NCBI RefSeq assembly: GCF_003334315.1
Contig: NZ_QOWR01000065.1
Source of the DNA: Escherichia coli
Lineage (GTDB): Bacteria; Pseudomonadota; Gammaproteobacteria; Enterobacterales; Enterobacteriaceae
DNA: 24,206 nt
Strand: one strand, 5' to 3'
Positions 1-22,496 of the stretch are shown piece after piece. A program made the position numbers and the translations under genes. A model generated the notes under the pieces. It saw nothing but the letters and a program-made list of their open reading frames with translations, was not told the DNA's origin and did not search any database. Position 1 is the stretch's first letter. Each line of letters opens with the position of its first letter.

Positions 1-109
1 CTTTTCAAAAGGGTATTTTGGCTTTGACATATTAGGGGCTATTCCATTTCATCGTCCAACAAAATGGGTGCAGTACATACTCGTTGGAAATCAACACAGG
101 AGGCTGGGA

Positions 110-262
110 ATGCCGCAGAAATATAGATTACTTTCTTTAATAGTGATTTGTTTCACGCTTTTATTTTTCACCTGGATGATAAGAGATTCACTGTGTGAAT
201 TGCATATTAAACAGGAGAGTTATGAGCTGGCGGCGTTTTTAGCCTGCAAATTGAAAGAGTAA
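110..262 (+). CDS. hokA: Hok/Gef-family type I toxin, 50 aa small membrane peptide
   Basis: The 50-aa translation MPQKYRLLSLIVICFTLLFFTWMIRDSLCELHIKQESYELAAFLACKLKE is a typical Hok toxin. AGGAGG lies at 98-103, 6 nt before the ATG at 110. The ORF track extends this frame upstream to a GTG at 68. Adjacency to cspA matches the K-12 layout. Confidence 0.8.
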   Translation: MPQKYRLLSLIVICFTLLFFTWMIRDSLCELHIKQESYELAAFLACKLKE

Positions 263-270
263 GAGTCTTC

Positions 271-290
271 GGCGGGAAATTATTCCCGCC
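271..290 (+). terminator. Perfect hairpin after hokA stop (GGCGGGAA-ATTA-TTCCCGCC); possible terminator or fold-back element
   Basis: 8-bp perfect inverted repeat read directly from the sequence. The downstream tract is only weakly T-rich, so terminator function is uncertain. Confidence 0.35.
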
Positions 291-392
291 TTACTTACGG
301 CGTTGCGCATTCTCATTGCACCCAAATTTATTCTTCACAAAAATAATAATAGATTTTATTACGCGATCGATTATTTATTTCCTGAAAACAAA

Positions 393-419
393 TAAAAAAA
401 TCCCCGCCAAATGGCAGGG
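393..419 (-). terminator. Rho-independent terminator of cspA
   Basis: On the minus strand, CCCUGCCA-UU-UGGCGGGG forms an 8-bp stem with one G-U pair, followed by a run of seven U. It sits about 30 nt downstream of the cspA stop. Confidence 0.7.
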
Positions 420-448
420 ATCTTAGATTCTGTGCTTTTAAGCAGAGA

Positions 449-661
449 TTACAGGCTGGTTACGTTACCAGCTGCCGGGCCTTTAGCGCCGCTTTCGATG
501 GTGAAGGACACTTTCTGACCTTCGTCCAGAGATTTGTAACCATCGTTCTGGATAGCAGAGAAGTGTACGAACACATCTTTAGAGCCATCGTCAGGAGTGA
601 TGAAGCCGAAGCCTTTGTCAGCGTTGAACCATTTTACGATACCAGTCATTTTACCGGACAT
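449..661 (-). CDS. cspA: Major cold-shock protein CspA, 70 aa
   Basis: Translation [70 protein letters not shown] carries the cold-shock domain RNP motifs KGFGFI and VFVHF. Full-length ORF. Confidence 0.97.
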
Positions 662-803
662 AGTGTATTACCTTTAATAATTAAGTGTGCCTTTCGGCGA
701 TATGGCGTGCTTTACAGATTTTGAAGCGTTAAAGGAATGTGCACTACGAGGGGTATCAACGATAACTCTTGAAGGGACTTGCCTTACTACACTGCTTTAA
801 TGG

Positions 804-814
804 TCTGTACGTCA
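804..814 (-). promoter_or_regulatory. cspA 5'-UTR cold box (TGACGTACAGA on the coding strand)
   Basis: Exact 11-nt cold-box motif at the 5' end of a roughly 160-nt leader upstream of cspA. The cold box is an established feature of the cspA leader. Confidence 0.7.
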
Positions 815-828
815 AACCGTTGATGTGC

Positions 829-12017: not shown

Positions 12018-12351
<334 letters not shown>

Positions 12352-12352
12352 C

Positions 12353-12438
12353 GTAGGCCTGATAAGACGCGTCAGCGTCGCATCAGGCAAATGTGCCGGC
12401 CATTGTCGGATGCGGCGCGACCGCCTTATTCGACCTAC
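12353..12438. repeat. REP elements (BIME-like pair of palindromic units)
   Basis: GTAGGCCTGATAAGACGCGTCAGCGTCGCATCAGGC, followed by a degenerate unit ending GCGGCGCGACCGCCTTATTCGACCTAC. Both resemble E. coli REP palindromes. Confidence 0.6.
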
Positions 12439-14648: not shown

Positions 14649-14820
14649 TGCCTGATGCGCTCCGCTTATCAGGCCTACGAAAATTCTGCAATGTATTGAA
14701 TTTGCACGATTTTGTAGGCCGGATAAGGCGTTAACGCCGCATCCGGCATAAACAAAGCGCACTTTGTCAACAATCTGTATACCCGGTGGCGCTGTGCCTC
14801 TGCGTGCAGCGCCATCCGGC
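14649..14820. repeat. BIME: cluster of about three REP palindromic units between dppA and dppB
   Basis: TGCCTGATGCGCTCCGCTTATCAGGCCTAC (about 14649-14687), GTAGGCCGGATAAGGCGTTAACGCCGCATCCGGCA (14714-14748), and CCGGTGGCGCTGTGCCTCTGCGTGCAGCGCCATCCGGC (14782-14820). Confidence 0.75.
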
Positions 14821-18852: not shown

Positions 18853-18877
18853 AAACCGGGGCCATGCGCTCCGGTTT
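18853..18877. terminator. Hairpin between convergent dppF and yhjV (AAACCGG-11 nt loop-CCGGTTT)
   Basis: 7-bp inverted repeat read from the sequence. It overlaps the yhjV stop codon. No strong U-tract, so it may be a weak or bidirectional terminator. Confidence 0.4.
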
Positions 18878-20147
18878 ACTCAATCAGCTTCAACAGTGGC
18901 GACAAGCATAGCAAAATGCCGTACAGCAGAATCAGCCAGGCTTTAAATCCGCGAAGTTTTTCCAGTTGTGCGACTTTATAGATCAGGAAAAACGGAATGA
19001 GGCACGACACAATACCATATAACGGGCTTCCCAACTGAAAGAACACCAGCACCGATACACGAAACGAAACCCAAATCGTCAACGTAATGACGATAAAAGC
19101 GCAGATCGCCAGAGTCAGCACGCGTGAGTTAATTTTCTTGGTATCAATAATTCGGCTTAACAGATTGAGAATAATGCCTTTAATGGCCTCGTGGAAACCG
19201 AGATAAATGCCAAAGAATGCGGTCAGTACGGCAAAGATATTAAGCACCGTAGAGGTGATATGAATGATATGCCCAGGGATCACCTGCGCGGCCAGCGCCA
19301 GTGCTGAGATATTTTGTTCAAAGGCAGAAACGGCTTCTTCGTGGCTAATTGAGAAGGTAAACGAAAAGGCAAAAAACAGGATCACCGCGATGAGCGTGAT
19401 ATAACTAATTCGGTGGGTACGCAGCGCGAGCCGGGTTGCCAGTACTTTATCCGCTTCCCGTTTACGATAGGCAATATTCATTGGGTTAAGTACCTGAATA
19501 AATACTGCAGAAAAGAAGCAAAATGGAATGGTAAGCAAGACATCGCGGAAAAAGACGGAGGCTTGCGGGAAGGCGGTTATATTGGCGAAATTCCAGTGCG
19601 GGATCATCGCAAAACCGAACACGACAATAATCCCTACTTTGACCACCACCATTGGCCCGGAAATCTTAAACAGTAATCGTTCACCACCAGACGCAATCGC
19701 CACCAGTACGGCGAAAATAGCGACTTTATAAAGTAGAGATTGTGAAAGATCGGCATCGGTTAAACCGAAGGTTTTCAGGTACGAGGCGCTGTCGAAAACC
19801 ACGGAGAGAGAGTAGATAAAAATCCCGTGGATAATCATCAAAAAGTAGATAACCCCGAGGAAAATTCCCCAGTTCTTCCCCAGGTAATGACTGATAATAT
19901 CGGTGTAGTCATTACAGGAATCGCTTTCAGAAAGGGTTTTTAAATAAATGTCCTGCACTACCCAGGTGGCAGGATAAGCAATGATCGCTGCGGTAATAAA
20001 TACCCAAATTCCCTTCAAGCCAATTTGTACTGGCATCAGCACGGTTCCGGCACCAATCGCCATGCCTATGCATAATAAAACCCAGCCGAAGTCGTAGCGT
20101 GTAAACGGCAATTTCTGATTGTGTTTCGATAGTGTGTTGTGCTGCAT
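18876..20147 (-). CDS. yhjV: Putative amino-acid permease YhjV (hydroxy/aromatic amino acid permease family), 423 aa
   Basis: Polytopic membrane protein. Start set at [22 protein letters not shown] (20147), with an AGGA-containing RBS upstream; the ORF track begins 21 codons earlier. Confidence 0.85.
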
Positions 20148-20506
20148 AAAGTCCTGTCCAGAAAGAAGTCGGCCTCGCAAAAATGAATAAACCCAGTTTC
20201 TCTTGCGCAACAGGTGGAGAAGTCGAATACGCAGTATGTAAAAAATGAGGCAACAGATTCACTGGGGAGGTCGCGAGGAGGCGCAATTCTACAAAATTGC
20301 GCATTTCACTACCAGTCTGGAGTCAGCCCGGATATGAACTGCAACTATTGCAAATAAAGAAATTAAGCTGGAAGGCATCGCGCAATGAGGAAGATTGCCG
20401 GGTGCTGACAGTAAAAAGCAATCGTAGAATCAGCGGCAAGCCGGAAAGGTTCCGGTGAGGCGCAATGTTGCGGGGGCTTTATCCCTGGTGGCATTGGTTG
20501 CTGGAG

Positions 20507-20574
20507 AGAGAAAACCCCCGCACGTTGCAGGTATGCACCTGACAACACCACGGGGGCTAATCTTGACTCTAGAC
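20507..20574 (-). ncRNA. rdlD: Rdl antisense RNA, antitoxin of the ldrD type I toxin-antitoxin pair
   Basis: The minus strand reads GTCTAGAGTCAAGATTAGCCCCCGTGG...GCGGGGGTTTTCTCT, a stem-loop ending in a U-tract, upstream of and antisense to the ldrD leader. Ends are approximate. Confidence 0.6.
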
Positions 20575-20622
20575 CACTCAAGAATAGCCGCGAAACGTTG
20601 TCATTACAACACAGGCGGCTAT

Positions 20623-20730
20623 ATGACGTTCGCAGAGCTGGGCATGGCCTTCTGGCATGATTTAGCGGCTCCGGTCATTGCTGGCATTCTTGCCAGTATG
20701 ATCGTGAACTGGCTGAATAAGCGGAAGTAA
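20623..20730 (+). CDS. ldrD: Ldr-family type I toxin, 35-aa membrane peptide
   Basis: MTFAELGMAFWHDLAAPVIAGILASMIVNWLNKRK is a full-length Ldr peptide. It is the C-terminal part of the 91-aa ORF 20455-20730 in the track. Confidence 0.85.
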   Translation: MTFAELGMAFWHDLAAPVIAGILASMIVNWLNKRK

Positions 20731-20780
20731 CGTGTCATGCGGGCGTCAGGCTGCCGTAATGGCAATTTGCGCCCGGATCA

Positions 20781-20811
20781 GGCCGCAGAGGTTAAACTCT
20801 GCGGCCTTTTT
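20781..20811 (+). terminator. Rho-independent terminator after ldrD
   Basis: GGCCGCAGAG-GTTAAA-CTCTGCGGCC is a perfect 10-bp stem followed by TTTTT. It lies 6 bp from the bcsG stop on the opposite strand. Confidence 0.75.
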
Positions 20812-20816
20812 AGTGC

Positions 20817-22496
20817 TTACTGCGGGTAAGGCACCCAGTCGCCGCCGTTCAGGCGAACGTACGGTTTATCCTGGTATTGAATAACTACTGCATTTGAGTT
20901 CTCGGAGACCGGTGCTGTTTGTGGCAACCCACTGGTGAGTTTTTTCCAGTCAACATTGTCTTCGGTGAAAATCTTGCCATCAAGAACGCGAACCACCAGA
21001 TCGGAGATAGCCAGGAAGCTGCTCGGTTGGTCGATGACAATCGGTGCCCCCTGATGTGGTGCCTTCATGCCGAAGAATTTCACCCCAACGGGGACGTCTG
21101 TGATAGACGGGCTAGGGATATCACGTAGGCCAGATACCTGCATTCTGTCGCCCTTCAGCGCGCCGCCGTGTTCCGGCACCACGACCACCATCACTTTACG
21201 ACCCGATTTCTCCAGTTCAGTAAAGAAGGCGTCCAGTTCATCAAAGAATTTCTGCGCCCGCGCTTTGTAATCCGCTGTTTTGCTGACCCCCGGATAATGG
21301 TTGCCGTCATGCAGTGGAAGCGTGTTGTAGAACGTGGCACTACGGCTGTTTTTATCTTTTTCGGTAACGTCCAGCCAGCGGTTAAGCACGGCGGTATCGT
21401 CATAAACCGGCGAACCATCAAAGCCCAGCAAAATAACCGGCAGATTTGTTTGATCCATCAATTCAGTCTGCATGCCGCCATTTTCGCGAACTTCTTTCAA
21501 AAAACCGCCGAACTGGCCGTTATGTCCCATCATCAGGTGCTGGGTAAAGCCCAGTTTCGAAAGGTTATCAAACAGATAGCAGTCGTTATTTGCCGGTTGA
21601 TACAGATTAGTGTGCGAAGTCTGCCCGCAGCTGGCGCGCAGTAAACGGATCGCCGCCGGGCCACTGTAGGAGGTGGCGGAGTTAAAGTTCTTGAACTCAA
21701 TATCGAAATGCGACCACAGTGGATGCGACATCAACCCGGCGGCTTCTATATCCGACCAGGAAAGCGAACAGATGTTAATCACCAGTAGTTCAAATGGCTG
21801 AGCATCAGCGGGCAGCGAAGACGGGAAGGTCGATTTACGTTTCGCCTCCGCGTTATAGAAATTATTCAGCCAGGCGTTAAGGTTCGCCGTTGTTGGCGGT
21901 GCAGTTTGTGCGGGCATATCACCCACTACCGGTGCGCCACCCGTCGCCGCAACGGTTGCCGCTGCGTTACCACCCGTCGTTGTTACAGTGGTCGTCGGTT
22001 GTCCGGCTGGCCACAAGGAGAAACTTGGTCCCGCCAGGGTAAGTACGTTCAGCCATAGCAGTATGGCAACCACAAAAACAGTAATGCGAATCCATTGTGA
22101 CAGGAATAACCAGGCCACTAATAAAACAAAAATGGCCCCAATCATCTGCCAGTTAATAAAGCGTGTGACAAGGTCGATTAAATAATCGGTACTGAACCCC
22201 GCCACCTGCGAACCCTGGCTCATTATGCTTTCCGGGCCAGGCAACCAGGTGTCATGCCAGAACAAAGCAAAGCCGATCGGCAGGGCAATCCAGTGGCGCA
22301 AGCGATGCAGGCTGTAGCGCGGAATGGGCATCAGCAGAAACGCGGCAAACACCAAATTGAGGAGCGGATGGAAGTTAAGATATCCCGCCCACAACAGGCC
22401 GAACTTAACCAGAAAATAGAAGTTCCAGCCGGAAAGGCCGCGCCAGTATTGCCAGAGGGAAGAAGGCATGGCGGTATTTTGCGTAAATTGAGTCAT
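20817..22496 (-). CDS. bcsG: Cellulose phosphoethanolamine transferase BcsG, 559 aa
   Basis: N-terminal transmembrane region and a C-terminal alkaline-phosphatase-like domain. ATGA overlap with the bcsF stop. Confidence 0.9.

Follow-up and report, generated by a model that had tools for sequence, protein, structure and literature searches.

How can an antisense RNA silence a toxin messenger without covering its ribosome-binding site? The question is raised by a short interval of the window, the 24,206-nt stretch of Escherichia coli DNA analysed here, in which a small toxin gene and an antisense RNA gene lie side by side. We hold with high confidence, in a judgement that takes in the predicted folding-control steps described below, that this locus is the chromosomal ldrD/rdlD (LDR-D) type I toxin-antitoxin module of E. 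coli, which is already known. In K-12, overproduction of the LdrD peptide is toxic (PMC4147584, PMC8309996, PMC8406316) and leads to a condensed nucleoid, and the RdlD RNA counteracts it (PMC4147584, PMC8309996). RdlD overlaps the long 5′UTR of ldrD, not the ribosome-binding site (PMC4147584, PMC8309996), and has been reported to interfere with translation and to offer no rescue to cells once the peptide has been made (PMC8406316). A 2021 review called the mechanism of RdlD repression unknown (PMC8309996).

The gene order of the window, hokA and cspA followed by dppABCDF, yhjV and bcsGFE, is that of the E. coli chromosome, and the yhjV-ldrD-bcsG synteny is shared with K-12 MG1655, where the order reads bcsG, ldrD (b4453), rdlD (b4454), yhjV; the pair accordingly sits at the orthologous LDR-D position. 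The K-12 ldrD/rdlD locus (LDR-D; b4453/b4454) was reportedly described by Kawano et al. in 2002. A sequence-only reading of this DNA had placed an ldrD/rdlD pair, known from K-12, in a gap of about 670 bp between yhjV and the cellulose genes, and all of this was borne out by Pfam, Rfam and K-12 synteny, the yhjV-bcsG spacer measuring 669 bp (20148-20816, counted from the annotated start of yhjV). The spacer aligns with that of K-12 without gaps at 99% identity over the 669 bp, and there is no base difference at all between the yhjV start and codon 31 of ldrD. Asn32 is encoded by AAT here and by AAC in K-12, a synonymous change, while the few further differences lie in or beside the terminator loop (20777-20815) and affect no defined element. 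Since identity is base for base upstream of ldrD codon 32, the promoters, the 5′UTR and RdlD are the experimentally studied ones; the flanking genes are those of K-12 LDR-D, and 35-aa peptide, rdlD, 5′UTR and putative promoters are identical to its own. Judged by its sequence, the copy here is an ordinary one, nothing setting it apart from the studied K-12 ldrD/rdlD, and its functional state would be that of K-12, as extrapolated through the 100% identity of the regulatory and RNA-coding sequence (PMC4147584, PMC7373196, PMC8406316). The features are collected in Table 1.

Table 1. Features of the ldrD/rdlD locus, in coordinates of the 24,206-nt window
Feature	Position	Strand	Details
Putative ldrD promoter, -10 TAGAAT	20425-20430	+	every aligned LDR unit has TAGAAT or TAGTAT in this place; conservation among copies starts just downstream
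Putative ldrD mRNA, ~375 nt	20437-20811	+	5′ end inferred; 3′ end is the T-run of the terminator
Spurious N-terminal extension	20455-20622	+	yields a "91-aa ORF" at 20455-20730
Leader ORF, candidate "ldrX"	20465-20542	+	25 codons, MLRGLYPWWHWLLERENPRTLQVCT; preceded by GGUGAGG
rdlD antitoxin RNA gene, 66 nt	20509-20574	-	5′ single-stranded tail, long hairpin, then U-tract
Putative rdlD promoter	20581-20609	-	-35 TTGTAA (20609-20604), 17-nt spacer, -10 TATTCT (20586-20581)
ldrD Shine-Dalgarno region, AGGCGGC	20613-20619	+	4-10 nt 5′ of the ATG at 20623
ldrD coding sequence	20623-20730	+	35 aa plus stop (36 codons), ATG at 20623; Pfam PF13940, PDB 5LBJ
Conserved 3′UTR element	20738-20773	+	predicted pairing with the ldrD initiation region (20597-20634) and with 20459-20465
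ldrD intrinsic terminator	20780-20811	+	stem 20780-20807 with 11 bp (8 G-C) and a 6-nt loop, then TTTT

The peptide encoded by ldrD, MTFAELGMAFWHDLAAPVIAGILASMIVNWLNKRK, is 100% identical to K-12 LdrD and to chain A of PDB 5LBJ, and it belongs to the Ldr_toxin family by a match to positions 1-35 of the 35 in the PF13940 profile (E 6.9e-27, 93.7 bits). The Fst/Ldr superfamily is characterised by a hydrophobic helix, a PxxxG motif, a conserved Trp and a basic C-terminus (PMC7472228, PMC2887945), and LdrD carries them as a hydrophobic helix, A-P-V-I-A-G (PxxxG), Trp30 and a C-terminal NKRK. An NCBIfam search of the peptide returned no match to an Ldr-specific model and only a sub-threshold one to Fst (E 0.039, 13.8 bits, cut-off 26), a weak match that fits the published link of Ldr and Fst in one superfamily (PMC2887945). 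The 35-aa Ldr ORF with its own strong terminator had been read correctly from the letters, as had its integrity, in that full peptide, antisense hairpin and U-tract are all intact, with no frameshift or stop relative to functional Ldr peptides. Among LDR units, as we call the conserved blocks of this kind, the terminator stem is conserved and its loop variable.

As for the ends of the messenger, the block conserved among the 19 LDR units of the alignment described below opens at CAAGCCGG, at 20437, and the overlap of RdlD with the ldrD 5′UTR, quoted as 136 bp (PMC7967276), is consistent with a putative mRNA start near 20437-20439. Position 20455, where the sequence-only reading began the feature, has no biological meaning; the conserved unit begins near 20437, a few bases after TAGAAT. 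No convincing -35 element was seen upstream of TAGAAT, and a consensus sigma-70 promoter scan of 20100-20900 returned no site, so both promoters are inferred only, from conservation and from hexamers read by hand.

The antitoxin gene is equally well delimited. The match to Rfam model RF01813 spans 20574-20509 and takes in the whole model (positions 1-66 of 66), scoring 87 bits where the gathering score is 50 (E 1.9e-17). K-12 rdlD, when mapped through the alignment, covers 20574-20511 with identical sequence, and K-12 ldrD covers 20623-20730. An antisense RNA at 20507-20574 had been predicted; its minus strand and its 5′ end at 20574 stand, while the 3′ end falls at 20509 by Rfam or at 20511 by K-12, not at 20507. 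The RNA has a predicted folding energy of -29.5 kcal/mol (z = -3.98), which 0 of 200 shuffles reached, and a terminator-like site lies on the minus strand within rdlD (20531-20517, tail GGTTTTCTCT). Its starting G, at 20574, lies 6 nt beyond the -10 TATTCT of a putative promoter, which agrees with the consensus at 8 of 12 positions (the scan threshold being 9) and hardly varies, if at all, among the aligned LDR units. The gene lies opposite the ldrD 5′UTR, its nearest end 49 nt upstream of the ATG, leaving ribosome-binding site and start codon uncovered. The Rdl hairpin is kept in all 19 LDR units, 15 of which came from a pattern search in which the Rdl stem was held constant; upper stems are remodelled yet paired, and K. 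aerogenes shows a compensatory CG to UA change.

The 669-bp spacer, including its non-LDR flank, was found at no less than 80% coverage in 5,394 of 5,426 complete E. coli genomes, and the 379-nt LDR unit in 5,426 of 5,426, each genome having 1-12 such places (median 4), which agrees with the earlier expectation that Ldr copy number varies. In K. aerogenes, two tandem ldr copies lie between dppF and a "predicted inner membrane protein" gene at the position of bcsG. A published analysis concluded that ldr loci are vertically inherited and duplicated within lineages (PMC2887945), and the K. aerogenes pair at the equivalent site agrees with that history.

The alignment was started from the window and K-12 LDR-A, -B and -C, to which units from E. 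whittamii, Escherichia sp. E1V33, another E. coli, Pseudocitrobacter and Citrobacter sedlakii and finally from K. aerogenes, Salmonella and Lelliottia were added, giving 19 LDR units from six genera. A pattern scan of genome contigs gave matches in Escherichia, Citrobacter and Pseudocitrobacter only, together with a likely contaminant contig labelled Bacillus, and the distant copies were taken from a plasmid collection. Several of the source "plasmids" are Mb-sized and others have chromosomal neighbourhoods, so that they look like mislabelled pieces of chromosome. The ldr copy of P. vendiensis carries an internal stop codon.

Among the LDR units, conservation is higher in the UTRs than in the coding part: pairwise identity averages 0.90 in the 5′UTR upstream of Rdl, 0.87 in the Rdl overlap and 0.88 in the 3′UTR core, against 0.80 in the ldr coding sequence. 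Within the codons, identity is 0.73 at position 3 and 0.88 at position 2, the greater variation at position 3 being expected under purifying selection. The only variable patches of the 5′UTR are 20528-20536 and 20567-20577, which are predicted hairpin loops of the mRNA (unpaired probability 1.0 and 0.92) and have as their counterparts in RdlD the apical loop and the unpaired 5′ tail. Antisense RNAs usually first meet their targets through such an arrangement of loop and tail. RdlD might first touch the mRNA at the hairpin loops 20533-20536 and 20567-20577, and the variable patches are the likely basis of paralogue specificity in this folding model.

With these elements in place, the course of expression can be proposed. 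Rightward transcription of ldrD would give a structured mRNA that yields a hydrophobic inner-membrane peptide, whose overproduction would stop growth, whereas rdlD, transcribed leftward from inside the ldrD 5′UTR, would give a hairpin RNA fully complementary to the mRNA over the stretch 49-114 nt ahead of the ldrD ATG. By pairing with the 5′UTR, RdlD would block LdrD synthesis post-transcriptionally, and RNase III would cut the duplex; both steps have been demonstrated in K-12, which has the identical sequence. What keeps most transcripts silent may be their own folding. In transcripts cut at 20640, 20680 or 20735, a local hairpin AGCCGC...GCGGCU around GUUGU/ACAAC is predicted to pair the Shine-Dalgarno region before any 3′UTR exists, and it would close the ldrD ribosome-binding site on the nascent transcript. 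In the finished transcript, the 3′UTR element would take over this role: the minimum-free-energy fold of 20437-20815 pairs 20597-20607, 20614-20620 and 20624-20634 with 20738-20766, and 20459-20465 with 20767-20773. The unpaired probability of the Shine-Dalgarno region stays at 0.15-0.29 at every transcript length folded. Such two-stage closure would leave most transcripts inert, as in hok and aapA1.

The long-range helices recur in the RNAalifold consensus of 15 LDR units. Standard pairs fill 97.2% of their cells, against 30-52% after shifting the partners by 1-3 columns, a score in which the structure is derived from the same sequences that are used to assess its pairing; 2-3 of 500 shuffle controls reach the helix score, a range in which related sequences can beat shuffles even without structure. 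The pair 20606/20757 is the sole long-range pair changed on both sides, since 13 of 19 units have AU, whereas C. sedlakii and the two K. aerogenes copies have GC, a single Pseudocitrobacter copy has UA, Lelliottia has GU and Salmonella a gap; many other changes are one-sided and wobble-compatible. Helices H3 and H4 of Salmonella and Lelliottia, where indels make the alignment unreliable, were not counted against pairing. Thin as its covariation is, this pattern is suggestive of hok- or aapA1-like control by mRNA folding. RdlD binding might then refold the 5′UTR and close the start of the leader ORF (20465), or cleavage might remove the 5′UTR, and either outcome would deny ribosomes their way of opening the ldrD start. 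It is possible, if on the unlikely side, that ldr mRNAs are controlled chiefly by their own folding, with activation through processing or refolding and RdlD acting on the 5′UTR route instead of directly at the start site. No description of fold-back control for ldr was found in the accessible literature, and Kawano 2002/2012 and Gerdes and Wagner 2007 may contain one.

Known systems show what such folding control could share with others. The K-12 ldrA/B/C-rdlA/B/C loci at 27 min have the same architecture, with the 5′UTR, the 3′UTR element and the Rdl and terminator stems nearly identical; they differ in being three tandem copies at another locus, in the Rdl apical loop and 5′ tail, which are unlike those of rdlD, and in their peptides, LdrA and LdrD being 57% identical according to a review (PMC8309996). 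Like hok/mok/sok of plasmid R1 and chromosomal hok, ldr/rdl combines a stable, highly folded toxin mRNA with an unstable antisense RNA aimed at the 5′ leader and not at the toxin ribosome-binding site, and a leader ORF has been proposed in both; the predicted 3′ element of ldrD, closing the translation start, is like the fold-back inhibition element of hok. However, hok and ldr have no sequence or protein homology, Ldr belonging with Fst, the ldrD leader ORF does not overlap the toxin start, and activation by 3′ processing would be a mere possibility for ldrD. A permissive-threshold Rfam search of window positions 1-420 returned no Sok-like RNA beside hokA.

In aapA1/IsoA1 of Helicobacter pylori, the Shine-Dalgarno sequence is sequestered over a long distance in the full-length mRNA (PMC5416894, PMC6733600), as predicted for ldrD, and successive local hairpins are predicted for nascent ldrD RNA as in aapA1. 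In contrast to RdlD, IsoA1 covers the toxin translation-initiation region directly, and the AapA1 and LdrD peptides are unrelated. Fst (par of pAD1, RNAI-RNAII) and Ldr form one superfamily with a transmembrane helix, a conserved Trp and a charged C-terminus (PMC2887945, PMC7472228), but the Fst antitoxin genes, unlike rdlD, lie across from the toxin gene's 3′ end, and their mode of regulation differs (PMC7472228, PMC2887945).

The leader ORF may offer another way for RdlD to act at a distance. Gerdes and Wagner proposed that a leader ORF, ldrX, is coupled to ldrD as mok is to hok; the review describing ldrX says that confirmation is still needed (PMC4147584), and later reviews repeat the coupling as fact (PMC8167048; also PMC5416894). 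In a strict form, LdrD would be translated only together with ldrX and RdlD would work solely by blocking ldrX, which appears rather doubtful. The candidate ORF at 20465-20542 has a good Shine-Dalgarno sequence and overlaps the RdlD target, its last third lying under RdlD, and 12 of the 15 LDR units examined retain both its ATG and its frame of 25 codons. Moreover, when 20509-20574 is held unpaired in silico, mimicking bound RdlD, the leader AUG closes, its unpaired probability falling from 0.56 to 0.03. Against strict coupling, the ORF ends 80 nt before the ldrD ATG, so that there is no stop-start overlap, and ORFs that do overlap the ldrD start (e.g. the TTG-initiated 20598-20660) were rejected as coupling ORFs because spacer indels shift their frame between copies. 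The leader peptide is also not conserved: substitutions are mostly non-synonymous while RNA pairs are preserved, and the exceptions to the kept frame include a frameshift in K-12 LDR-C, a length of 21 codons in two Pseudocitrobacter units and ACG as the start in C. sedlakii. If the leader ORF matters, it would do so by being translated and not by virtue of its peptide.

It is unlikely that RdlD mainly triggers degradation, with a 64-66-bp duplex cut by RNase III and the mRNA destroyed without a separate translation block. RNase III-dependent double-stranded RNA of ~21 nt has indeed been captured with p19 within the rdlD/ldrD overlap in K-12, among the most abundant small-RNA clusters (PMC7373196), and a 2025 paper states that type I antitoxins in general remove the active transcript through RNase III cleavage (PMC11997105). 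Yet in an rnc mutant both RNAs were slightly stabilised, and full-length ldrD gained only slightly in level and half-life (PMC7373196), reviews class Ldr/Rdl under "inhibit protein synthesis" (PMC4147584), and a cut at least 49 nt upstream of the start codon would spare the coding part.

That the locus is a decaying, non-functional remnant whose resemblance to ldrD/rdlD is historical only is very improbable. Chromosomal Fst/Ldr systems have no known deletion phenotype (PMC7472228), depolarisation assays showed little or no effect of deleting ldrD or rdlD (PMC11997105), and broken copies such as that of P. vendiensis exist. On the other side, the ORF, Shine-Dalgarno sequence, putative promoters, RdlD hairpin and terminator are intact and identical to the active K-12 locus, the spacer is retained in nearly all complete E. 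coli genomes and at least one LDR unit in every one of them, and codon position 3 varies more than position 2.

A mechanical ORF finder lists a 91-aa ORF that starts at GTG 20455, because no stop intervenes in the ldrD frame upstream of the true ATG. Apart from this open frame, nothing speaks for the 91-aa product as a real gene product, a reading close to impossible given that the extension has no family match apart from its Ldr part, that its frame is broken in LDR paralogues by spacer indels before the ATG, that curated and automatic annotations and the solved structure use the 35-aa form, and that the region of the extension is taken up by conserved RNA structure and the rdlD gene. The in-frame ATG at 20533 was set aside as an alternative start or as ldrX, for it falls within the variable loop, and LDR-A, -B and -C lack it. 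Many RefSeq genomes have a spacer 100% identical to this one with ldrD annotated in it, and the RefSeq/PGAP genomes inspected call ldrD correctly and omit the rdlD RNA gene. The suspicion that ORF callers miss or mis-call ldrD is thus right for the mechanical list, which gives 91 aa, and wrong for RefSeq/PGAP.

As a finding, the re-identification of a textbook E. coli locus carries little weight. It has some value as a check on annotation, as ORF lists inflate ldrD to 91 aa and RefSeq annotation leaves out rdlD. Beyond this, the predicted pairing of the 3′UTR with the start region across six genera provides a concrete hypothesis, testable by mutation, for how RdlD may repress ldrD at a distance.

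Automatic annotation was found to capture only one partner in the type I toxin-antitoxin pair: in both RefSeq PGAP genomes (L002 and L004, the latter E. coli ET490), the ldrD CDS is present, while an ncRNA feature for the antisense antitoxin RNA rdlD is absent. Both ldrD and rdlD are annotated in the curated K-12 record (L001).

Among the ldr units compared, the copy of Pseudocitrobacter vendiensis (L014) has Trp31 replaced by an internal TAG. In addition, the 5'UTR of the K-12 paralogue LDR-C (L003, 2140-2590) has a 1-nt deletion in a G-run, which shifts the frame of the leader ORF, the small ORF of the 5'UTR, and shortens a predicted stem. The gene adjoining ldrD, yhjV, is split by an IS1A element in E. 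coli ET490 (L004, 19200-20955), while yhjV of the window (18876-20147) is intact.

The window also contains hokA (110-262, + strand), a second type I toxin gene, which encodes 50 aa beginning MPQKYRLLSLIVICFTLLFFTW, and no Sok-like RNA was found near it by Rfam in window 1-420. The terminal part of an IS150 transposase gene adjoins the window start (1-30), as judged by the annotation of a near-identical genome. Within 12018-12262 (+ strand), the tRNA-Pro gene is directly followed by an element matching RtT RNA, which is usually discussed in the setting of the tyrT operon. The ES036/CssrF match falls between dppA and dppB; one RefSeq genome has a 75-aa hypothetical protein annotated there.

Other RNA elements of the window
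Element	Position	Strand	Match
cspA thermoregulator mRNA	394-821	-	full-length, 500.8 bits
tRNA-Pro gene	12018-12091	+	
RtT RNA	12129-12262	+	Rfam, 101 bits
naRNA4/CssrE	12356-12435	-	Rfam, 69 bits
ES036/CssrF	14671-14713	-	Rfam, 56.7 bits

The Rdl pattern was matched exactly in a 503-bp contig labelled 'Bacillus sp.' (L013, coverage 0.66), which almost certainly reflects contamination of the assembly with enterobacterial DNA. Klebsiella aerogenes NCTC10006 (L015, 1676-2262), whose sequence here comes from a 791-kb 'plasmid' record resembling a piece of chromosome, carries two ldr genes in tandem, flanked on one side by dppF and on the other by a 'predicted inner membrane protein' gene in the position of bcsG; the site is the same as that of E. 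coli LDR-D, the K-12 ldrD/rdlD locus, but lacks yhjV. As well, Salmonella enterica Bredeney possesses an Ldr-family gene between yajD and tsx (L016, 1170-1277), a site that differs from both E. coli LDR loci.
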